A stretch of DNA of 7,776 nt, from the IMG/VR virus record IMGVR_UViG_2939152649_000004, positions 1-7,776 of that record, one strand, 5' to 3'. Below are positions 1 through 7,776 of this stretch, in pieces. The notes beneath the pieces were generated by a model. The model searched no databases. It was given only the letters and a program-made list of their open reading frames with translations, and was not told where the DNA came from. The stretch's first letter is position 1. Each line of letters opens with the position of its first letter. This DNA is from a virus. Its lineage: Duplodnaviria; Heunggongvirae; Uroviricota; Caudoviricetes. The translations under genes and the position numbers were made by a program.

Positions 1-276
1 TTACCGACTGCGGCCTGAGTTTTTTAAGTGACGTAAAATCGTGTTGAGGCCAACGCCCATAATGCGGGCTGTTGCCCGGCATCCAACGCCATTCATGGCC
101 ATATCAATGATTTTCTGGTGCGTACCGGGTTGAGAAGCGGTGTAAGTGAACTGCAGTTGCCATGTTTTACGGCAGTGAGAGCAGAGATAGCGCTGATGTC
201 CGGCGGTGCTTTTGCCGTTACGCACCACCCCGTCAGTAGCTGAACAGGAGGGACAGCTGATAGAAACAGAAGCCAC
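1..276 (-). CDS. insA: IS1 InsA (transposition regulator, zinc-finger/HTH protein)
   Basis: 91-aa [46 protein letters not shown]...LKNSGRSR, recognised as canonical IS1 InsA. CxxC...CxxC zinc-finger motif is present. Confidence 0.93.
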
Positions 277-308
277 TGGAGCACCTCAAAAACACCATCA
301 TACACTAA

Positions 309-331
309 ATCAGTAAGTTGGCAGCATCACC
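309..331. repeat. IS1 terminal inverted repeat (left end); IS1/flank junction at 331|332
   Basis: Sequence atcagtaagttggcagcatcacc is the reverse complement of the IS1 end GGTGATGCTGCCAACTTACTGAT. Only one IS end is in the window, so no target-site duplication can be assessed. Confidence 0.8.
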
Positions 332-335
332 AGCA

Positions 336-366
336 GTGACAATATAAAATATAGTCTTAATATTAT
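336..366 (+). promoter_or_regulatory. Candidate sigma70-like promoter upstream of the GGDEF ORF, immediately next to the IS1 end
   Basis: gtgaca at 336..341 (5/6 match to TTGACA) followed 17-19 bp later by overlapping AT-rich hexamers aatatt/tattat at 359..366. By-eye call only. Confidence 0.2.
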
Positions 367-388
367 ACAATACTCGCTGAATCGTCAT

Positions 389-1156
389 TTGTCGACGTGG
401 AATATCGTGTACACCAAAATAATATCAGTATTTTGGCTTGTATTACTTATCAGCTCATGCATCAGCATACGTAATTACTCAAAAATATGGTTGTGTATAA
501 TACTTATTTGTATAGTGTCAGTATGCAATAATCTAATTTTATTGTATTTTATTGATAAATCCCATCCTGCATGGTACATGACAAAATTTCTTGAATTGAT
601 ATCAATGATTTATATCATTTCAACACTCATGTATTATGTTTTCAGGAAATTAAATCATGCTAATCATATGGCAATTCATGATCCACTAACGAATACATAC
701 AATAGAAGATACTTTATTGACTCATTGAAGAATATATCAAAACACCATGATTTCTCAGTAATAATGTTAGATATTGACAATTTCAAAAGCATCAATGACA
801 AATGGGGGCATCATATGGGTGATCAAGTCATAGTAATGGTTACCAGAATAATAAAAAAATCCATCAGGAAAGAGGATATATTAGGGCGCTTAGGCGGTGA
901 GGAGTTCGGTATTATCATTAAAGGTAATACTCAAAAGCTCTTGCTATCAATTGCAGAGCGAATCAGAAAAAACATTGAGGAGCAATGCTCGAAAAAATTA
1001 TTATCGCATGGACCTGAGAAAATAACCGTCAGTATTGGTTGTTTTACTTCAAAAGAGAATAATCTCAGTCCATCTGAAATGTTAGTCAATGCCGATAAAG
1101 CGTTATATCAAGCCAAAAGAACCGGAAAGAACAAGGTGATAACTCACTCAAAATAA
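389..1156 (+). CDS. Membrane-anchored GGDEF-domain diguanylate cyclase (predicted active; I-site present); start codon uncertain
   Basis: 255-aa ORF. Three hydrophobic segments in the N-terminal ~85 aa are followed by a GGDEF domain: HDPLTNTYNRRYF, DIDNFKSINDKWGHHMGD, and RKEDILGRLGGEEFGIII, which carries the GGEEF active-site motif with an RxxD motif five residues upstream. The region is visibly AT-rich. The ORF as listed starts at TTG 389; there is no in-frame ATG before codon 63. Confidence 0.85.
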   Translation: MSTWNIVYTKIISVFWLVLLISSCISIRNYSKIWLCIILICIVSVCNNLILLYFIDKSHPAWYMTKFLELISMIYIISTLMYYVFRKLNHANHMAIHDPLTNTYNRRYFIDSLKNISKHHDFSVIMLDIDNFKSINDKWGHHMGDQVIVMVTRIIKKSIRKEDILGRLGGEEFGIIIKGNTQKLLLSIAERIRKNIEEQCSKKLLSHGPEKITVSIGCFTSKENNLSPSEMLVNADKALYQAKRTGKNKVITHSK

Positions 1157-1185
1157 ACACCTTTTTAAAATACAGCCCCAATAAA

Positions 1186-1218
1186 CTGCAGAATATTATC
1201 CCATATAATATCCTGCAG
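1186..1218 (-). terminator. Imperfect inverted repeat/hairpin between the convergent GGDEF and tfa genes; possible terminator for stf-tfa
   Basis: Arms ctgcagaatattat (1186..1199) and ataatatcctgcag (1205..1218) pair at 13 of 14 positions with a 5-nt loop. On the minus strand the hairpin is followed by TTTATTGGGG. It lies 12 nt past the tfa stop. Confidence 0.35.
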
Positions 1219-1229
1219 TTCGTAATGCA

Positions 1230-1814
1230 CTATTCGATAATGGGTCCTGTTGGCCATTCAATATCCGGTGCAGTTGATGTATCAACACGGTTCAGCAATA
1301 CCCGATACTTTTTCCATGCTTCCAGCAACGAGATTTCTTCCTCCGTTGCAATTTCCAGATCTGCAGCATCCTGAAGCGGCGCAATATGCTCACTGGCTAC
1401 CTGCATCAGGCTGTTTTTTGTTTCTTCCGCCTCCCGGATCCGGAACAGTTTTTCTGCTTCCGTATCCTTCACCCAGGCTGTGCCGTTCCACTTCTGATAT
1501 TCCCCTCCCGGCGATAACCAGGTAACATTTTCCGGTAACGGACCGAGTTCAGAAATAAATAACGCGTCGCCGGAAGCCACGTCATAAACCGTTTTACCCC
1601 GATGATTTTCAACGAGATGCCACGATGCCTCATCACTGTTGAAAACAGCCACGAAGCCTGCCGGAATATCTGGCGGTGCAATATCGATACTGTTTGCTGG
1701 CAGACCTGTATGAGGCGGAATATATGCGTCACCTTCACCAATAAATTCATTAGTTCCGGCCAGCAGATTATAAATTTTTATGGTCCGTGGTTGTTCACTC
1801 ATTCTGAATGCCAT
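1230..1814 (-). CDS. tfa: Tail fibre assembly protein Tfa (lambda-like)
   Basis: 194-aa [34 protein letters not shown]..., recognised as lambda Tfa with matching length. Its ATG overlaps the stf stop as TAATG, the arrangement expected for lambda stf-tfa. Confidence 0.93.
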
Positions 1815-3031
1815 TATGCAAGCCTCACAATATAGTTAAATGCGATGTTTTTGACGGTGTTTTCCGCGTTACCAGCAGCGTTAACGGTGATGGTGTGTCC
1901 ATGTGAGCCAATCGCAACCGAGTGCGTATGAGCACCAATACCCACAGTATGTGCGTGTGCACCTGCGCTTGCAGCAGTACCCGATACAGAGTGCGTATGA
2001 GCGCCTGCAGAAGAAGTGTTAACACTGTATTTAGAATAATCAGATGCTCCACTTCCCGGAGCACCACTGGAACCACCTGAAACAAATGTCATCGAATGGG
2101 TATGTGCACCGGCTGAAGCAGCCGTACCGCTAACACTATGGGTATGCGCACCAGTGTTATTCGTGGATTTAGTGCCGTAATCAAACGACGATGTGGTTTT
2201 CGTCCCCAAATCCGTACTGGATGCGCTGGCGCTGTGGGTGTGCGATTTAATGCCGTCCTGTTCCTGAGACAATACGGCCCGACCACTGGCGGGCTTGCCC
2301 TTAATCATCCAGCCACGCATATCAGGGATCACGCCTGACGGATAAGCCGCTGCAAGTTTCGGGTAAGCAGATTTGTCAAAAGTCTGCCCCTGCATCAGGG
2401 CATAACCAGACGGAACGGTATCCGATGGCCACGGGATTGGTGCGCCAGGCGGATAAAACTGCTCTGATGGCGTATAGAGTGAATAAACTGTACCGTCCGT
2501 TAACCCTTCCGGCTTATTAGCAGAATATGCTGGTGACGTATGAATCGTTACGCTGGCATTACTGGTATAATCCCATTGAATATTTACACCAGTCGCATAA
2601 TTTCCGATTGCAACGTAAATATCGTAAGTATCACCAGATGTATTGACCCAGGCAAAATTTGTAAACCCTGCCGATGTGCGCTGCCATAAAGCACCAGTAA
2701 TCCCCTTCGGATTACCATTACCTGCACGCAAAACAAGTTCAGATATACCTGCCTGTTGAGGTGAACCGACGTTATATCCAGCCCCACCAATCAACGTAAT
2801 TGAAACAACAGAACTCGCCTGCGGCATGGTTACCGTTGCTAATTTGAACCAACCAGCACCACCGCTGAATGACATAGTTGTTGAGTTAAGCGTACCAATA
2901 TCTTTCGGTGTCAGTGTTATATCCGCTGAAAGCGCCTTACCATTCACCTTACGGGCAGAAGGTACCCGAAATCCCCTGAAAGCACAGCGGCTGGCTGAGG
3001 AGATAAATAATAAACGGGGAGCTGTATGCAC
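1814..3031 (-). CDS. stf: Side tail fibre protein Stf, C-terminal portion; probably a 5'-truncated remnant
   Basis: C-terminus ...[31 protein letters not shown] is recognised as lambda-type Stf. It contains the tail-fibre motif [17 protein letters not shown] and repeated GAHTHS His motifs. The ORF opens with a GTG and a basic, non-fibre-like ~30-aa leader, the frame closes at 3050..3052, and no tail genes lie upstream. Confidence 0.8.
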
Positions 3032-3217
3032 AAAGCATCTCCTGTTGAGTTAAGAACGAGCATTGAGATGGCACATAGCCTCGCTCAAATTGGAGTCAGG
3101 TTTGTGCCAATACCAGTAGAAACAGACGAAGAATTTCATACGTTAGCCGCATCCCTTTCACAAAAGCTGGAAATGATGGTGGCGAAAGCAGAAGCAGATG
3201 AGAGAGACCAGGTATGA
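3026..3217 (+). CDS. Small exo-xis-region protein, lambda Orf63-like (63 aa)
   Basis: 63-aa [70 protein letters not shown] lies 4 nt upstream of the ATG. Length and position relative to the TraR-like ORF and xis/int match lambda orf63; identity is by recollection, not alignment. Confidence 0.65.
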
Positions 3218-3293
3218 CAACCACTGAATGCATTTTTCTGGCAGCGGGCTTCATATTCTGTGTGCTTATGCTTGCCGACATGGGACTTGTTCA

Positions 3294-3509
3294 ATGACAC
3301 ATCAGCAGGAAAACGCCCTTCGCAGTATTGCCCGTCAGGCTAATTCTGAAATCAAAAAAGCCAGACAGCAGTTTCCGGATAAAAACGTCGATGACATTTG
3401 CCGTAGCGTACTTAAGAAGCACCGCGAAACGGTAACGCTGATGGGATTCACACCGACTCATTTAAGCCTGGCGATCGGCATGTTAAACGGCGTCTTTAAG
3501 GAACGGTGA
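3294..3509 (+). CDS. Small exo-xis-region protein in the position of lambda orf61 (71 aa from ATG 3294)
   Basis: The ORF track gives 3228..3509, but the internal ATG at 3294 overlaps the stop of an upstream micro-ORF (ATGA-type coupling) and yields MTHQQENALRSIARQANSEIKKARQQFPDKNVDD... Same strand and operon as the orf63-like and TraR-like ORFs. Confidence 0.55.
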   Translation: MTHQQENALRSIARQANSEIKKARQQFPDKNVDDICRSVLKKHRETVTLMGFTPTHLSLAIGMLNGVFKER

Positions 3510-3607
3510 ACATGAAAAGCAAAATCATCAGGGAGCTACAGGTTCCTTTTTTATTGTTCGCATTCATCCTCAAGCGTATTAACCAACAATTCAGGGATTA
3601 ATGGAAG

Positions 3608-3829
3608 ATGGCAGACATCATTGATTCAGCATCAGAAATCGAAGAATTACAGCGCAACACAGCAATAAAAATGCGCCGCCTGAACCACCAGGCTATATCT
3701 GCCACTCATTGTTGTGAGTGTGGCGATCCGATAGATGAACGAAGACGCCTGGTCGTTCAGGGTTGTCGGACTTGTGCAAGTTGCCAGGAGGATCTGGAGC
3801 TTATCAGTAAACAGAGAGGTTCGAAGTGA
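3608..3829 (+). CDS. TraR/DksA-family C4 zinc-finger protein (lambda Orf73-like)
   Basis: 73-aa ORF with CCECG...(17 aa)...CRTCASC, i.e. a CxxC-N17-CxxC zinc ribbon at the C-terminus typical of TraR-like proteins. Length matches lambda orf73 and it sits upstream of xis/int on the same strand. Confidence 0.8.
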   Translation: MADIIDSASEIEELQRNTAIKMRRLNHQAISATHCCECGDPIDERRRLVVQGCRTCASCQEDLELISKQRGSK

Positions 3830-3980
3830 GCGAAATTAACTAGAAGCCAAAGATAAAATCATCGCTGAGCAGGAGAAAATCGCTAACGGAGAAAAGACAG
3901 TAAGTCAGTATATGAAAACCGCATGATATCATCAGATAAAAATCGGTCGTAAAGCGAAATATTAATACCAGAACAAACGA

Positions 3981-4006
3981 GTCGAGGTAAATTATATTAC
4001 CTCGAT
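3981..4006 (-). terminator. Hairpin between the convergent TraR-like gene and the membrane-protein gene; candidate terminator
   Basis: Perfect 8-bp stem cgaggtaa/ttacctcg (3983..3990 with 3997..4004) around loop attata, extendable by a t-a pair and a g.t wobble. The minus-strand side downstream is moderately U-rich. It lies about 35 nt past the stop of the 4040..4642 ORF. Confidence 0.35.
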
Positions 4007-4039
4007 AAATTAACTAAAACTTGCCCGCTATATACTATA

Positions 4040-4642
4040 TCATTCAGTATCATCACGCGCGGTCTGTGCATATGTCACTACCGCACCTAATATATTAATT
4101 TTCTTTTCAACATAGATAATATTATCGTACTCATAATTGCCATACGGATAGCAAATGCGAATATTCTCATGTAGATCGGGGTCATCCACCTCAGCTCCAG
4201 AACAACTTTTTGAACTACCGGAAGTATACCGATACGGTGCAACATAAGACGATGTCTCTCCAGGCAAAAAATAAGTTAGTGTCGTAAGGGGTATAATCAG
4301 AAAAAATCCTGCAAATATGCACATCCCTGCATAAACCTTAAGGTATGCTGACAGACTCTTCCAGCCTCTTTGTTTTACTATCCCCTTCTTAACCCAAAAC
4401 AGAGATAATAGAAAAGCTATTCCCATGCTAAACAGAATGTAATAGTGGGATATACTCTGATTAAGAAACGTGACCCTGTAGATATCTGCCCGCCACCAGA
4501 AGAAAAGGAAAATAAAGATCAGCCCTGAAACTGTCATGCAAATCAAATAAGGATACGAATCTTTTTTCATGTTTAGCGCCCATAAAATTTTTCCTGACCC
4601 GGACAAATTTACCATCCATTTTTTGCGCAGAAAATAGCTCAT
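4040..4642 (-). CDS. Hypothetical integral membrane protein (prophage cargo gene; about 3 TM helices plus a ~70-aa C-terminal domain); start uncertain
   Basis: 200-aa ORF with hydrophobic segments LICMTVSGLIFIFLFFWW, YYILFSMGIAFLLSLFWV and MCIFAGFFLIIPLTTLTYFL, then a hydrophilic Cys/Tyr-containing tail (...CSGAEVDDPDLHENIRICYPYGNYEYDNIIYVEKK...). AT-rich and opposite in orientation to the surrounding operon. Alternative starts at codon 10 or codon 25 (MKKDSYPYL, ATG at 4568..4570). Confidence 0.65.
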   Translation of the reverse strand: MSYFLRKKWMVNLSGSGKILWALNMKKDSYPYLICMTVSGLIFIFLFFWWRADIYRVTFLNQSISHYYILFSMGIAFLLSLFWVKKGIVKQRGWKSLSAYLKVYAGMCIFAGFFLIIPLTTLTYFLPGETSSYVAPYRYTSGSSKSCSGAEVDDPDLHENIRICYPYGNYEYDNIIYVEKKINILGAVVTYAQTARDDTE

Positions 4643-4884
4643 TACTTACTGCACAATAATACACAAAATTGCGTAAATTTTTTGCATGGATTTTAGCTCT
4701 TTCAGCCGACATTTAAGGGGTAAATAGCATTTCCTAAAAGCAACTGCACCAACCCAACAGAATGGGCTACCGCTTACGTTGAGAGCAAAAAAGTGTATAG
4801 CAGCAATGAACAGCATCCTCGCACTGACGAGGATTTCTTTTATCTGAACTCGCTACGGCGGGTTTTGTTTTATGGAGATGATAA

Positions 4885-5052
4885 ATGCACTTCCGAGTCA
4901 CAGGTGAATGGAATGGAGAACCATTCAACAGAGTTATCGAAGCCGAGAACATCAGCGACTGCTATGACCACTGGATGCTGTGGGCGCAGATAGCACATGC
5001 AGACGTAACCAATATTCGAATTGAAGAACTGAAAGAACACCAAGCCGCCTGA
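4885..5052 (+). CDS. Small protein upstream of xis (lambda orf55-like, 55 aa)
   Basis: ATG at 4885 preceded by GGAG at 4874..4877; translation MHFRVTGEWNGEPFNRVIEAENISDCYDHWMLWAQIAHADVTNIRIEELKEHQAA. Not in the ORF track because it is under 60 aa. Position and length match the 55-codon ORF next to xis in lambda. Confidence 0.6.
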   Translation: MHFRVTGEWNGEPFNRVIEAENISDCYDHWMLWAQIAHADVTNIRIEELKEHQAA

Positions 5053-5064
5053 TGGCGGTTTTTT
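5044..5064 (+). terminator. GC-rich hairpin plus T6 run overlapping the orf55 stop; intrinsic-terminator-like
   Basis: gccgcc (5044..5049), loop tgat, ggcggt (5054..5059) gives a 6-bp stem including one G.U pair, followed by tttttt. Function not established. Confidence 0.45.
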
Positions 5065-5065
5065 C

Positions 5066-5105
5066 TTGCGTGTAATTGCGGAGACTTTGCGATGTACTTG
5101 ACACT
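5066..5105 (+). promoter_or_regulatory. pI-type int promoter region with cII-binding box TTGC-N6-TTGC
   Basis: TTGC at 5066..5069 and 5076..5079 separated by 6 bp, immediately upstream of the xis ATG at 5092. In lambda the cII-activated pI promoter sits at the xis start with its transcript beginning inside xis. Confidence 0.55.
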
Positions 5106-5310
5106 TCAGGAGTGGAACGCACGCCAGCGACGCCCAAGAAGCCTTGAAACAGTTCGTCGATGGGTACGCGAGTGCAGGATATTCCCTCCTCCGGTAAAGG
5201 ATGGAAGAGAGTATCTGTTCCACGAATCAGCGGTAAAGGTTGACTTAAATCGACCAGTAACAGGTAGCCTTTTGAAGAGGATCAGAAATGGGAAGAAGGC
5301 GAAGTCATGA
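5092..5310 (+). CDS. xis: Excisionase Xis (lambda)
   Basis: 72-aa ORF MYLTLQEWNARQRRPRSLETVRRWVRECRIFPPPVKDGREYLFHESAVKVDLNRP..., recognised as near-identical to lambda Xis. It overlaps the int start as in lambda. Confidence 0.96.
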   Translation: MYLTLQEWNARQRRPRSLETVRRWVRECRIFPPPVKDGREYLFHESAVKVDLNRPVTGSLLKRIRNGKKAKS

Positions 5311-6358
5311 GCGCCGGGATTTACCCCCTAACCTTTATATAAGAAACAATGGATATTACTGCTACAGGGACCCAAGGACGGGTAAAGAGTTTGGATTAGG
5401 CAGAGACAGGCGAATCGCAATCACTGAAGCCATACAGGCCAACATTGAGTTATTTTCAGGACACAAACACAAGCCTCTGACAGCGAGAATCAACAGTGAT
5501 AATTCCGTTACGTTACATTCATGGCTTGATCGCTACGAAAAAATCCTGGCCAGCAGAGAAATCAAGCAGAAGACACTCATAAATTACATGAGCAAAATTA
5601 AAGCAATAAGGAGGGGTCTGCCTGATGCTCCACTTGAAGACATCACCACAAAAGAAATTGCGGCAATGCTCAATGGATACATAGACGAGGGCAAGGCGGC
5701 GTCAGCCAAGTTAATCAGATCAACACTGAGCGATGCATTCCGAGAGGCAATAGCTGAAGGCCATATAACAACAAACCCTGTCGCTGCCACTCGCGCAGCA
5801 AAATCAGAGGTAAGGAGATCAAGACTTACGGCTGACGAATACCTGAAAATTTATCAAGCAGCAGAATCATCACCATGTTGGCTCAGACTTGCAATGGAAC
5901 TGGCTGTTGTTACCGGGCAACGAGTTGGTGATTTATGCGAAATGAAGTGGTCTGATATCGTAGATGGATATCTTTATGTCGAGCAAAGCAAAACAGGCGT
6001 AAAAATTGCCATCCCAACAACATTGCATGTTGATGCTCTCGGGATATCAATGAAGGAAACACTTGATAAATGCAAAGAGATTCTTGGCGGAGAAACCATA
6101 ATTGCATCTACTCGTCGTGAACCGCTTTCATCCGGCACAGTATCAAGGTATTTTATGCGCGCACGAAAAGCATCAGGTCTTTCCTTCGAAGGGGATCCGC
6201 CTACCTTTCACGAGTTGCGCAGTTTGTCTGCAAGACTCTATGAGAAGCAGATAAGCGATAAGTTTGCTCAACATCTTCTCGGGCATAAGTCGGACACCAT
6301 GGCATCACAGTATCGTGATGACAGAGGCAGGGAGTGGGACAAAATTGAAATCAAATAA
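5288..6358 (+). CDS. int: Tyrosine integrase Int (lambda)
   Basis: 356-aa ORF MGRRRSHERRDLPPNLYIRNNGYYCYRDPRTGKEFGLGRDRR...DKIEIK, recognised as near-identical to lambda Int. The catalytic region includes HELRSLSARLY and the tyrosine in ...MASQYRDDRG. Confidence 0.97.
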   Translation: MGRRRSHERRDLPPNLYIRNNGYYCYRDPRTGKEFGLGRDRRIAITEAIQANIELFSGHKHKPLTARINSDNSVTLHSWLDRYEKILASREIKQKTLINYMSKIKAIRRGLPDAPLEDITTKEIAAMLNGYIDEGKAASAKLIRSTLSDAFREAIAEGHITTNPVAATRAAKSEVRRSRLTADEYLKIYQAAESSPCWLRLAMELAVVTGQRVGDLCEMKWSDIVDGYLYVEQSKTGVKIAIPTTLHVDALGISMKETLDKCKEILGGETIIASTRREPLSSGTVSRYFMRARKASGLSFEGDPPTFHELRSLSARLYEKQISDKFAQHLLGHKSDTMASQYRDDRGREWDKIEIK

Positions 6359-6448
6359 TGATTTTATTTTGACTGATAGTGACCTGTTCGTTGCAACAAA
6401 TTGATAAGCAATGCTTTTTTATAATGCCAACTTAGTATAAAAAAGCAG
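6355..6448 (-). other. attL prophage-host junction: lambda P' arm (Int arm-type sites P'1-P'3, IHF H' site) plus the 15-bp att core
   Basis: Reverse complement reads GCCTGCTTTTTTATACTAAGTTGGCATTATAAAAAAGCATTGCTTATCAATTTGTTGCAACGAACAGGTCACTATCAGTCAAAATAAAATCATTA. Core GCTTTTTTATACTAA is at 6432..6446; arm-type sites are at 6355..6385; IHF-like TATCAATTTGTTG is near 6393..6407. Bacterial B-arm sequence follows the core. Confidence 0.88.
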
Positions 6449-6492
6449 GCTTCAACGGATTCATTTTTCTATTTCATAGCCCGGAGCAACCT

Positions 6493-7776
6493 GTGAACAC
6501 ATTTTCAGTTTCCCGTCTGGCGCTGGCATTGGCTTTTGGCGTGACGCTGACCGCCTGTAGCTCAACCCCGCCCGATCAACGTCCTTCTGATCAAACCGCG
6601 CCTGGTACCTCTTCTCGCCCGATTCTGTCGGCAAAAGAAGCGCAGAATTTCGATGCTCAACACTATTTTGCATCCCTGACACCAGGTGCTGCAGCGTGGA
6701 ATCCTTCCCCGATTACCCTGCCTGCGCAACCTGACTTTGTTGTCGGCCCGGCGGGCACTCAAGGTGTAACGCATACCACGATTCAGGCGGCGGTAGATGC
6801 GGCAATTATCAAGCGTACCAACAAGCGCCAGTATATTGCCGTGATGCCTGGTGAGTATCAGGGAACGGTATATGTCCCTGCCGCTCCGGGTGGAATTACT
6901 CTGTACGGTACAGGTGAAAAACCGATTGATGTGAAGATTGGGCTTTCCCTTGATGGTGGCATGAGCCCTGCCGACTGGCGTCACGACGTCAACCCGCGCG
7001 GCAAATATATGCCAGGTAAACCAGCGTGGTATATGTACGATAGCTGCCAGAGCAAACGCAGCGACAGTATCGGTGTTCTCTGCTCTGCGGTCTTCTGGTC
7101 ACAAAACAATGGCCTGCAACTGCAAAATCTGACCATCGAAAACACGCTGGGCGATAGCGTAGATGCAGGTAACCATCCGGCGGTGGCACTGCGTACTGAT
7201 GGTGACCAGGTACAGATTAACAACGTTAACATTCTCGGTCGTCAGAACACCTTCTTTGTCACCAACAGCGGTGTGCAGAACCGTCTGGAAACGAATCGTC
7301 AGCCGCGTACGCTGGTGACCAACAGCTACATTGAAGGGGATGTGGATATCGTTTCTGGTCGCGGCGCAGTGGTGTTCGATAACACCGAATTCCGCGTGGT
7401 GAACTCACGTACTCAGCAAGAAGCGTATGTGTTTGCACCGGCTACGCTGTCCAACATTTACTACGGTTTCCTCGCCGTAAACAGCCGTTTCAATGCTTTC
7501 GGTGATGGTGTGGCGCAACTGGGCCGCTCGCTGGATGTTGATGCCAATACCAACGGTCAGGTGGTGATCCGTGATAGCGCCATCAACGAAGGTTTTAACA
7601 CGGCTAAACCGTGGGCCGATGCGGTGATCTCTAATCGTCCGTTTGCGGGTAATACCGGCAGCGTAGATGATAACGACGAAATACAGCGCAATCTGAATGA
7701 CACTAACTACAACCGCATGTGGGAATACAATAACCGCGGCGTGGGTAGTAAAGTGGTTGCAGAGGCGAAGAAGTAA
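6493..7776 (+). CDS. ybhC: Host outer-membrane lipoprotein YbhC (pectinesterase-like family, putative acyl-CoA thioesterase)
   Basis: 427-aa ORF from a GTG start with GGAG 6 nt upstream. N-terminus MNTFSVSRLALALAFGVTLTAC carries a lipobox (LTAC). ybhC is the gene flanking att-lambda in E. coli; the complete ORF ends with TAA at 7774..7776. Confidence 0.9.
   Translation: MNTFSVSRLALALAFGVTLTACSSTPPDQRPSDQTAPGTSSRPILSAKEAQNFDAQHYFASLTPGAAAWNPSPITLPAQPDFVVGPAGTQGVTHTTIQAAVDAAIIKRTNKRQYIAVMPGEYQGTVYVPAAPGGITLYGTGEKPIDVKIGLSLDGGMSPADWRHDVNPRGKYMPGKPAWYMYDSCQSKRSDSIGVLCSAVFWSQNNGLQLQNLTIENTLGDSVDAGNHPAVALRTDGDQVQINNVNILGRQNTFFVTNSGVQNRLETNRQPRTLVTNSYIEGDVDIVSGRGAVVFDNTEFRVVNSRTQQEAYVFAPATLSNIYYGFLAVNSRFNAFGDGVAQLGRSLDVDANTNGQVVIRDSAINEGFNTAKPWADAVISNRPFAGNTGSVDDNDEIQRNLNDTNYNRMWEYNNRGVGSKVVAEAKK

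Follow-up and report, generated by a model that had tools for sequence, protein, structure and literature searches.

In the 7,776-nt stretch of viral DNA analysed here (the window), a truncated side tail fibre gene (stf) is fused to the exo-xis region of a prophage. Compared with an intact relative, the joint at 2963..2969 is an internal deletion scar in a lambda-type prophage at attB-lambda (ybhB/ybhC). The stf endpoint of this scar (in stf sense, GGG^TACC) is found at exactly the same nucleotide in other rearrangements, with at least 22 different partner sequences joined there, and this recurrence points to a so far unrecognised activity that breaks or joins DNA site-specifically. We regard the explanation as a whole, which combines the deletion scar, the stf hot spot and a putative recombinase-like exchange, as probable.

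Deletion junction between stf and orf60a

The window contains the following features:

1..331, minus: partial IS1 (insA 1..276), 100% identical to an IS1A copy in L001
332..1156, plus: gene for a prophage-borne MASE4-GGDEF diguanylate cyclase, of which the 3' two-thirds are present (Pfam GGDEF, E=3e-45; MASE4 positions 154-237 only)
1230..1814, minus: tfa, tail fibre assembly chaperone, intact, 194 aa (Pfam Caudo_TAP, E=4e-43)
1814..2969, minus: stf', last 384 codons of the gene for a 926-aa side tail fibre (residues 543-926; Pfam Collar and Phage_fiber, residue mapping)
2963..2969, no strand: deletion junction with the 7-bp microhomology TACCCGA (three-way alignment); recurrent crossover TA at 2963..2964
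2970..3031, minus: non-fibre leader (21 codons) with which the chimeric ORF begins, read from the strand opposite the 3' end of orf60a and the beginning of orf63
2963..3053, plus: orf60a (DUF1317) 3' remnant, last ~29 codons (Pfam DUF1317 positions 32-60; equals lambda 31,259..31,169)
3026..3217, plus: orf63 (DUF1382), intact (Pfam DUF1382, E=3e-31)
3294..3509, plus: gene in the orf61 position, 71 aa, without Pfam family (annotation in L001 and L028)
3608..3829, plus: orf73, TraR/DksA-type zinc-finger protein (Pfam zf-dskA_traR)
4040..4642, minus: ORF of 200 aa that contains hydrophobic stretches and matches no Pfam family, in the ea22/ea8.5 position
5092..5310, plus: xis, intact, lambda-type (Pfam Exc)
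5288..6358, plus: int, intact, lambda-type (Pfam Arm-DNA-bind_1 and Phage_integrase)
6359..6446, no strand: attL, P' arm and 15-bp core (TTAGTATAAAAAAGC at 6432..6446), then the bacterial B arm
6493..7776, plus: ybhC, host gene flanking the lambda attachment site (annotation in L001, L002 and L028)

Int and Xis lie beside a hybrid attL (B-O-P') adjoining ybhC, the arrangement of a lambda-type prophage at attB-lambda; the remnant, whose genes run in prophage order, has kept int/xis and attL, as the initial annotation had recognised. The xis/int region (5092..6358) and the sequence on to the core edge share 98.5% DNA identity with lambda, and the homology ends at 6446, which corresponds to lambda 27,724, the edge of the annotated core. 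Homology to lambda is interrupted at 3842..4814, around the 200-aa ORF. The exact protein encoded by this ORF was found in 7,071 blocks of the collection; in 10 of the 10 places listed its neighbours were lambda-type int/xis at ybhC, and the prophages at those ten places still have exo, bet, gam and replication genes.

At the other end, the IS1 terminal inverted repeat ends at 331, inside the interrupted GGDEF gene, which is cut at nt 508 of 1332; a full-length 443-aa version is present in L003, L008 and L028. In relatives, attR is positioned between the GGDEF gene and ybhB, and the left edge of the window lies inside IS1. Positions 332..2969 are 100% identical to L003, L008 and others, and the exact Tfa protein also occurs in intact prophages at the same attachment site.

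The stf parent (L003, L005, L008) agrees with the window up to 2969 and the exo-xis parent (L005, L001, L028) from 2963 on. The two overlap in TACCCGA, inside orf60a (lambda 31,253-31,259). A deletion junction of the exo-xis region with mid-stf had been read correctly in the initial annotation, although placed at 3026..3052 near orf63 and not at 2963..2969 in orf60a. In other genomes, the sequences to which the two flanks correspond (99.96-100% identity) stand apart from each other; the junction is no chance feature. No extended homology was detected between the stf and orf60a parents, their best local score falling within that of shuffles. A hairpin on the stf side was not significant (z=0.3), and on the orf60a side a terminator-like hairpin is present, which a simple terminator scan missed. 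Positions 2900..3060 contain no IS sequence, and there is no IS terminus at the joint. If only the window were considered, its 7-bp microhomology would be enough to account for a one-off illegitimate event.

The fusion created a minus-strand ORF (1814..3031, 405 codons), for which a GTG start and a non-fibre leader had been noted from the start. The GTG is at 3031..3029, and the leader derives from the antisense strand of orf60a/orf63. The leader comprises 21 codons and not the 27 aa first counted: the last six residues, RVPSAR, already belong to Stf (R543-R548 in the 926-aa parental protein of L008), and the remainder of the ORF is Stf residues 543-926. Upstream, the frame is closed by an in-frame TAA (reverse complement of 3050..3052), and orf63 starts at 3026 within the leader, both as originally described. 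On the plus strand, a 75-aa ORF (2826..3053) matches Pfam DUF1317 at positions 32-60 of 60 (E=1.6e-14). Exact-protein searches with the 405-aa and 75-aa chimeric ORFs returned no match, and a gapped junction pattern gave 0 matches in genome_contigs and metagenome_contigs. The "stf" ORF of 405 codons thus arose by accident as a chimera, and there is no reason for its expression as a fibre.

Comparison with L028 (strain 700481), an intact prophage at the ybhB/ybhC site, showed agreement in genes, gene order and orientation. The flanks of the joint are collinear with L028, mapping to 4444 and 43212 (microhomology copies at 4438-4444 and 43212-43218). Since the breakpoints are 38.8 kb apart in L028 with essential genes between them, the prophage in the window is a deletion remnant. 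The interval covers lom through Nu1, the lysis genes, Q, O, P, the repressor, gam, bet and exo.

The loss is larger than the roughly 30 kb first estimated (~38.8 kb on L028), and that it occurred as a single event is not established. In L005 (MB06022), both flanks are present at ~100% identity (99.96%) and only 8.1 kb apart (microhomology copies at 14204-14210 and 22302-22308), in a prophage already without head, tail and early genes, which were lost in other events of a several-step decay. The deletion may therefore measure 38.8 kb, as on the intact relative, or only 8.1 kb in its last step.

No tail-fibre sequence continues upstream of the joint, and in none of the 181 phage records with a match does stf adjoin orf63. 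The window's own junction was found in 0 of 5,426 complete E. coli genomes; the sole record among them that spanned the query (L004) is a defective remnant with a related, independent stf'/orf60a' scar. The DNA between stf codon 542/543 and orf60a codon ~31/32 was lost, with the join made at TACCCGA. This took out all immunity, replication, lysis and virion genes; attL-int-xis-(exo-xis genes)-orf60a' and stf'-tfa-GGDEF' remained, joined head-on. Such a remnant cannot make phage. The alignments demonstrate the deletion as such, and a gutted prophage is routine.

Recurrence of the stf endpoint

The initial annotation missed the stf endpoint as a nucleotide-precise recurrent breakpoint. The partners joined at this nucleotide lie about 0.28-38.8 kb away and are collinear; they fall in stf, lom, J, K, A (two sites), Nu1, ylcI and orf60a (two sites), and a further one is in a P2-like H gene. 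Counts were made from IMG/VR contigs, and because lineages may have been sampled repeatedly there, different partner sequences served as the unit instead of contigs.

Two anchor-based searches were blind to the position of a breakpoint. An anchor 38 nt downstream of the site retrieved 16 viral contigs, of which 12 read on into stf, and the breaks in the other four were all exactly at G^TACC (4/4). An anchor 363 nt downstream retrieved 121 loci, 82 of them parental. Here, 21 loci with 17 different partners were joined at the stf site, and only five other junction events occurred in the intervening 363 nt. The H-prefixed pattern searches by design return only joints at that stf nucleotide, and the look-up of the 353-aa product detects only breakpoints within a few hundred nt.

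The complete genome L004 has its junction at the same stf nucleotide, in a prophage at the argU/DLP12 site. Each flank there is an allele other than the window's and matches intact genes as far as the joint, so the event was independent of the window's. Shared descent of the two junctions through a secondary 19-bp deletion was rejected on the same grounds. A junction at this nucleotide is also present in L030 (an NCBI assembly) and in six metagenome contigs. A second recurrent site in the survey is ^TACTGG, which is not GGTACC. Together, these counts show the stf endpoint to be a hot spot for rearrangement ends in the contigs and genomes covered.

The C-terminal stf module and tfa (~1.72 kb) are common to lambdoid and P2-like prophages. 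Nearly all events retain the C-terminal module, and only one joint of the reciprocal type was found. This polarity could result from selection together with little dispensable DNA downstream, rather than from the mechanism.

Anatomy of the crossover and possible mechanisms

In 17 of the 20 partner sites with readable, uninterrupted parental sequence, the dinucleotide TA is present at the crossover; the three others are the protease site of L101 and the sites in Nu1 (L042), which reads CA, and in the stf N-terminus (L065), which reads TG. An exchange of the serine-recombinase type calls for matching central dinucleotides in the two partners. Microhomology at the joints is 0-8 nt long and overlaps the TA wherever present, with none in the Nu1 partner (L042). 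The partner sites are scattered and TA-bearing, often within G-rich...TACC-like sequence. L075 and L104 carry the reciprocal joints of an inversion with a site in the portal gene, with one TA in each and no loss or gain of sequence; they are two contigs of one metagenome, and their origin from a single genome is not proven. Two patterns were searched for reciprocal joints that retain the stf N-terminus: one gave chance matches only, the other one true case (L075).

Random slippage accounts for these features less well than does a conservative exchange with a 2-bp core. We infer that a break or exchange would take place at the TA of the stf site (GGTCGGG^TACCTTCTGCC in stf sense), and the best fit would be a conservative, recombinase-like exchange with a 2-bp core, in which a primary site recombines with secondary sites. 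The secondary site in the window's lineage would be GGGTAAC in orf60a. Candidate recombinases in these genomes are pin (L004) and, in L028 and its relatives, a large serine recombinase of the ybcK type. No similar sites were found near ybcK, and neither the window nor L028 contains an invertase gene.

A rival mechanism, which we consider unlikely, is a site-specific break or nick at G^TACC (by a sequence-specific nuclease, a relaxed KpnI-type GGTACC restriction activity, or at a strong gyrase/topoisomerase IV site, G^GTAC^C), with repair via 0-4 nt of terminal microhomology and variable degradation of the upstream end. It would account for the one fixed end and for microhomology that mostly runs 0-4 nt rightwards from the same T. 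GGTACC is rare in the prophage (five sites in the 50-kb locus L028), and several partners are one-mismatch GGTACC variants, that of L167 being canonical. The gyrase version, G^GTAC^C, agrees with scission before G, quinolone-stabilised gyrase cutting before G with a 4-nt stagger (PMC6379681). However, the retained end was never resected, and in at least seven joints the first position of GTAC derives from the partner but positions 2-4 from stf, contrary to what a 4-nt heteroduplex would give. The inversion pair L075/L104 is perfectly reciprocal, and ^TACTGG, as a site other than GGTACC, does not fit either.

Random illegitimate recombination as a one-off event, by slippage or end joining at TACCCGA, with the recurrence as a search effect, is already disfavoured, and we give it little credence. 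The 7-bp microhomology without extended homology would fit, as would the bias of the pattern searches and the 353-aa look-up towards the stf nucleotide. Yet the position-blind anchors placed 4/4 breaks and 17 of ~22 distinct junction events on one nucleotide of several hundred, and the independent events in L004 and the window have the same stf end.

Deletion by an insertion sequence, either an IS3-family element in orf60a or the nearby IS1, appears very improbable. In MB06022, the right end of an IS3-family element abuts orf60a 8 bp from the window's breakpoint, and in the window IS1 is 2.6 kb away. The joint is free of IS sequence, whereas adjacent deletions keep the IS; the breakpoint lies 8 bp outside the IS end, and the stf end is common to many junctions with no IS nearby. 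Among the 5,426 complete genomes, none has an IS between 2962 and 2970 with the window's flanks. A natural mosaic arrangement or an assembly artefact can be dismissed almost entirely, despite the high mosaicism of tail-fibre genes and the wide sharing of the stf C-terminus and tfa module: the upstream partner is antisense orf60a and not fibre sequence, not one phage record covers the joint, both complete genomes and independent samples contain equivalent joints, and overlaps of 0-7 bp are too short for short-read assemblers to join unique sequences.

Several special cases were also rejected. An invertible segment was discarded as no second or inverted copy of the stf site was found in the prophage and the e14 pix sites differ; the stf site shows little dyad symmetry beyond GGTACC. 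A mobile cassette did not hold up, the right boundary of the module being the ordinary tfa end (DIEWP), at no fixed nucleotide. Mimicry of IS5 ends, loxP, the lambda att core, the integron core, cos or Chi was judged to misplace the cut. In the literature, nothing relevant was found on a described hot spot or on the lambda "crg" IS2.

Known systems and implications for prophage decay

The remnant resembles the cryptic prophages of E. coli K-12 (DLP12, Qin, Rac, e14) and other att-lambda remnants, in which essential genes are deleted internally and the int and tail-fibre ends are kept. In Qin, nohA (a Nu1 homologue) stands beside a truncated stfQ, whose module lacks the hot-spot sequence. E. 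coli B REL606 carries a remnant at the same ybhB/ybhC site, but a different one. The deletion endpoints of the K-12 cryptic prophages and of the REL606 remnant are unlike those of the window.

Int-promoted deletions of the lambda b-region and secondary-site recombination have one end fixed at att and the other at weakly similar secondary sites. As in the stf events, one endpoint is fixed to the nucleotide, the others are scattered with short similarity, and both deletions and inversions are possible. In contrast to these deletions, the fixed site is in stf, identity at the crossover is ~2 bp (TA) and not a 7-bp overlap, and the att core is uninvolved.

Din-family serine invertases (Cin/Gin/Pin) acting at quasi-sites and serine transposases such as TnpX/TndX require a matching central dinucleotide. 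The stf exchange would share with these systems a conservative, reciprocal course, a 2-bp core, weak flanking similarity and the location in a tail-fibre gene at the boundary of a host-range module. It differs from the e14 pix site (TTCTCCCAAACC-AA-...), which it does not match in sequence and from whose core-like position the crossover is 16 nt away. A search for the 26-bp Din-family crossover site (AAACC-NN-GGTTT core) recovered the e14 pix sites as a control; the core is absent from the stf site, and no inverted partner site was found.

Nick-site illegitimate recombination in rolling-circle replicons (M13, pC194) was reportedly described by Michel and Ehrlich in 1986. There too, one end is fixed, at the nick, and the other falls where a few nucleotides agree with the nick sequence. 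Unlike these replicons, stf has no associated rolling-circle origin or HUH nickase, and a reciprocal inversion would be unexpected there.

The most far-reaching version of our proposal is possible and put forward tentatively. GGTCGGG-TA-CCTTCTGCC, at the start of the widely shared Stf receptor-binding module, may be the primary site of an undescribed conservative exchange with a TA core, host- or prophage-encoded, that recombines with secondary sites throughout the prophage. By repeatedly deleting or inverting everything upstream, it would disarm E. coli prophages in a directed manner and keep the host-range cassette (stf C-terminus and tfa).

An endpoint that recurs to the nucleotide in more than 20 independent events, across lambdoid and P2-like prophages, several chromosomal sites and samples, is not routine. 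In annotation, a chimeric "tail fibre" ORF whose N-terminus is odd at the stf site is to be read as a scar and not as a variant fibre. If a defined cutting or exchange activity acts at this site, it would explain why many cryptic prophages end in a truncated stf and tfa, and the domestication of E. coli prophages would be partly directed and not random decay.

Layout of the prophage end and its chimeric stf frame

A lambda-type prophage occupies the E. coli lambda attachment site here, and the window is its int-proximal end. Domains were assigned with Pfam, and near-identical loci were compared through their RefSeq annotations.

Features of the window, from right to left
6493..7776, ybhC
6432..6446, attL, 15-bp core, where lambda homology ends
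5288..6358, int (with xis, 98.5% DNA identity to lambda)
5092..5310, xis
between xis and the 200-aa ORF, a 55-aa ORF
opposite strand, a 200-aa ORF with hydrophobic stretches, in place of the ea22/ea8.5 segment
left of the 200-aa ORF, orf73 (TraR/DksA)
between orf73 and orf63, the gene at the orf61 position
start 3026, orf63 (DUF1382)
minus strand, truncated stf, then tfa
3' two-thirds only of a MASE4-GGDEF gene, interrupted by IS1
1..331, IS1

Within 1-1156, the prophage-borne MASE4-GGDEF diguanylate cyclase gene is interrupted by IS1 at nt 508 of 1332, and the first base of the window already lies within IS1. Lambda homology has a gap at 3842-4814, where the 200-aa ORF matches no Pfam family. 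The assembly collection lists this exact protein in 7,071 blocks, and in each of the ten places displayed it adjoins lambda-type int/xis.

The minus-strand ORF at 1814..3031 has 405 codons, starts with GTG and is bounded upstream by an in-frame TAA at 3052..3050. This agrees with the initial annotation, as does the start of orf63. The non-fibre leader described there is also present, with a length of 21 rather than 27 residues, and corresponds to the orf60a 3' end read in antisense. From R22 on, the ORF corresponds to R543...A926 of the 926-aa Stf fibre of intact relatives (5221..8001 in locus L008). On the plus strand, the ORF at 2826..3053 matches positions 32-60 of the 60 positions of DUF1317 (Pfam).

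The stf/orf60a junction

Positions 332..2969 are 100% identical to the GGDEF-tfa-stf region of strain S43 and eight other loci, and 2963..7776 shows 99.96% identity to strain MB06022 and 99.4-99.6% to many prophages with full orf60a and exo upstream. Alignment thus places the joint proposed within 2900-3060 at 2963..2969, where the two parental matches overlap by 7 bp (TACCCGA); the parent comparison found no further similarity between stf and orf60a around the joint. Converted to lambda coordinates (34,222 minus window position), the orf60a breakpoint is 31,253-31,259, within that gene (31,169-31,351).

Between ybhB and ybhC, strain 700481 (L028) has a complete prophage with the window's orientation, in the order GGDEF, tfa, stf, lom, J...Nu1, ylcI, iss, Rz, R, S, porin gene, Q, nin genes, P, O, repressor region, kil, gam, bet, exo, orf60a, orf63, orf61, orf73, 200-aa ORF, xis, int. 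The microhomology copies lie there at 4438-4444 and 43212-43218; therefore, the equivalent deletion is 38,774 bp, a large internal loss as had been proposed, of more than the roughly 30 kb suggested. None of the phage records and none of the complete E. coli genomes had the window's own junction. We found neither an intact fibre gene continuing upstream nor complete phages naturally carrying this arrangement, and the reading as a deletion scar in a cryptic prophage therefore stands once its coordinates and size are corrected. As the remnant lacks repressor, replication, lysis and virion genes, it is not inducible to phage.

A strong terminator-like hairpin lies inside orf60a (AGGCTGGGTATTTCCCGGCCT then TTTCTGTT; -17.6 kcal/mol, z=-2.8; lambda 31,262-31,290), in a position that may be that of terminator tL3. 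Rearrangement has left four marks no more than 28 bp from it (window 2940-2975 equivalents; L028 43185-43218; lambda 31,253-31,290).

Rearrangement marks near the orf60a hairpin (lambda coordinates)
31,253-31,259, window joint
31,266^31,267, misc_recomb feature in lambda GenBank records, given there without explanation
31,267/8, end of the IS3-family element of MB06022
31,277-31,280, joint of EC20-4B-2 (L004), 19 bp from the window joint

A recurrent, nucleotide-precise stf endpoint

A deletion scar by itself is ordinary. Unlike the scar, the recurrent nucleotide-precise stf endpoint, GGG^TACC in stf sense (TA at 2963..2964), is not, and no description of it was found in the searchable literature. 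The complete genome of EC20-4B-2 carries an stf'/orf60a' joint in another remnant, at the argU/DLP12 site with intD, with the same stf end, orf60a retained 19 bases further and the microhomology GGTA. On the left flank, identity is 99.76% to the 700481 stf allele versus 97.7% to that of the window; on the right flank it is 100% to a common intact orf60a allele over the first 304 nt and only about 96% to window-lineage alleles over 851 nt. Since these are other alleles, the joint is independent of the window's. In L030, a look-up of the 353-aa product from the first internal Met revealed terminase A' fused at the same stf nucleotide.

Break-blind searches used conserved anchors downstream of the site in IMG/VR contigs, so that the position of the break was not preset. 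A 35-mer anchor 38 nt downstream recovered 16 contigs: 12 continue into stf for at least 225 nt, and the four that break all do so at G^TACC. A 38-mer anchor 363 nt downstream recovered 119 contigs (121 loci including earlier ones), 82 of them parental at the site; 21 loci, with 17 distinct upstream sequences, are fused precisely at that nucleotide. The intervening 363 nt contain just five further junction events, two of them at ^TACTGG. With metagenome and assembly hits added, there are at least 22 distinct partners; every one mapped on L028 is collinear.

Partners and their distance from the site, measured on L028
stf fibre repeat, 0.28 kb
stf N-terminus, 1.5 kb
lom, 2.1 kb
J, 4.2 kb
K, 7.3 kb
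A (two sites), 19.2 and 19.8 kb
Nu1, 21.1 kb
ylcI, 21.8 kb
ylcI-iss spacer, 22.0 kb
orf60a (two sites), 38.8 kb

Further partners are a P2-like H gene (second codon) and, in another phage type, genes for terminase, portal and protease. TA stands at the crossover in 17 of the 20 partner sites with uninterrupted sequence available (TAC in about nine, TACC in about six), and positions -2 and -3 are G-rich; the window's partner sequence is GGGTAAC. Microhomology is absent at Nu1 and longest, at 8 nt, in L167, whose site is a canonical GGTACC; where present, it always overlaps TA.

Two contigs of one metagenome carry joints that retain opposite parts of stf: L075 reads stf-N...GGG-TA-AGTGCC... and L104 reads ...GGGCGCTG-TA-CCTTCT...stf-C. 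The portal gene in L101 reads ...GGGCGCTG-TA-AGTGCC..., and the two are therefore probably reciprocal joints of an inversion, with one TA each and no bases lost or gained. Pattern searches found no other stf-N-retaining joints besides L075. Their scarcity may reflect the DNA at stake, as only about 3.5 kb downstream of the site would be dispensable before the host bio genes, versus 40 kb of harmful prophage DNA upstream.

Several other rearrangements were observed in stf. A second recurrent breakpoint, GGGGAT^TACTGG (stf sense), lies 265 nt downstream (window about 2699/2700) and has two different partners (L076, L135); one J partner site (GCAGCATG^TACCGG) is joined to both stf sites (L076 and L094). 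In L059, seven bases absent from the partner parent (TCAACGT) separate a ylcI-region partner from ^TACC and may be filler or a second small event. Two E. coli assemblies encode P0007 (1,336 aa), an in-frame portal(1-447)::Stf fusion protein; it reflects a further head-to-fibre deletion, whose stf end is close to the N-terminus and not at the hot spot. In metagenome contigs L031-L033, a variant IS1 has inserted into the same stf module, downstream of the hot spot by about 80 nt (…CACTACC|CGCTTAACTC), which yields the same 353-aa called product by another route.

Mechanism and prophage decay

A conservative 2-bp (TA) exchange between the primary stf site and secondary sites fits all joints and the probable reciprocal inversion. 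Conservative 2-bp exchange at quasi-sites is the behaviour of serine recombinases. Candidate enzymes are a ybcK-type large serine recombinase of these prophages and pin (L004), with no link found to either. The former (508 aa) is encoded in the nin region of L028 (33309-34835) and in L018, L022 and L025; prophages carrying it integrate by lambda Int.

A 4-nt staggered cut at G^GTAC^C, by gyrase, which with quinolones cleaves before G (PMC6379681), or by a KpnI-type enzyme, would account for the targeting of the rare GGTACC, but predicts four overlap bases inherited en bloc, whereas in at least seven joints the first base is the partner's and the next three are from stf. A tyrosine recombinase should leave crossovers at two points 6-8 bp apart, which were not observed. 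Sequence rules out the Pin/Gin family: a control search recovered the e14 pix sites, and the crossover falls elsewhere. In addition, no second copy of the site was found. Insertion sequences are excluded, as none is present at the joints, and random slippage would not produce a single-nucleotide spike. We therefore infer that the stf end arises at the TA of GGG-TA-CC, through exchange or breakage directed to that site.

The window's last step may have removed 38.8 kb or 8.1 kb, as either size is compatible with it. MB06022 contains both flanks (0 and 2 mismatches), and its microhomology copies are separated by 8,098 bp. This interval holds a 5'-truncated stf fused to ylcI, then iss, Rz, R, a truncated S and an IS3-family element that IS30 and a group II intron (ltrA) have split. 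The right end of the IS3-family element adjoins orf60a 8 bp from the window's breakpoint. The stf'/ylcI joint is common to S43, L009, L014 and L017, and the intact J-lom-stf versions L008, L012, L013 and L015 match the left flank equally well. Segment 13055-22300 of MB06022, which occupies the window prophage's site, may represent an intermediate remnant.

In different E. coli lineages, many lambdoid remnants with different deletions occupy the ybhB/ybhC site.

Remnants at ybhB/ybhC
L002, J'/ea8.5'
S43 (L003), R'/orf60a
REL606 (L029), P22-like mosaic
L030, A'/stf'

These remnants could serve as a natural series on prophage decay.
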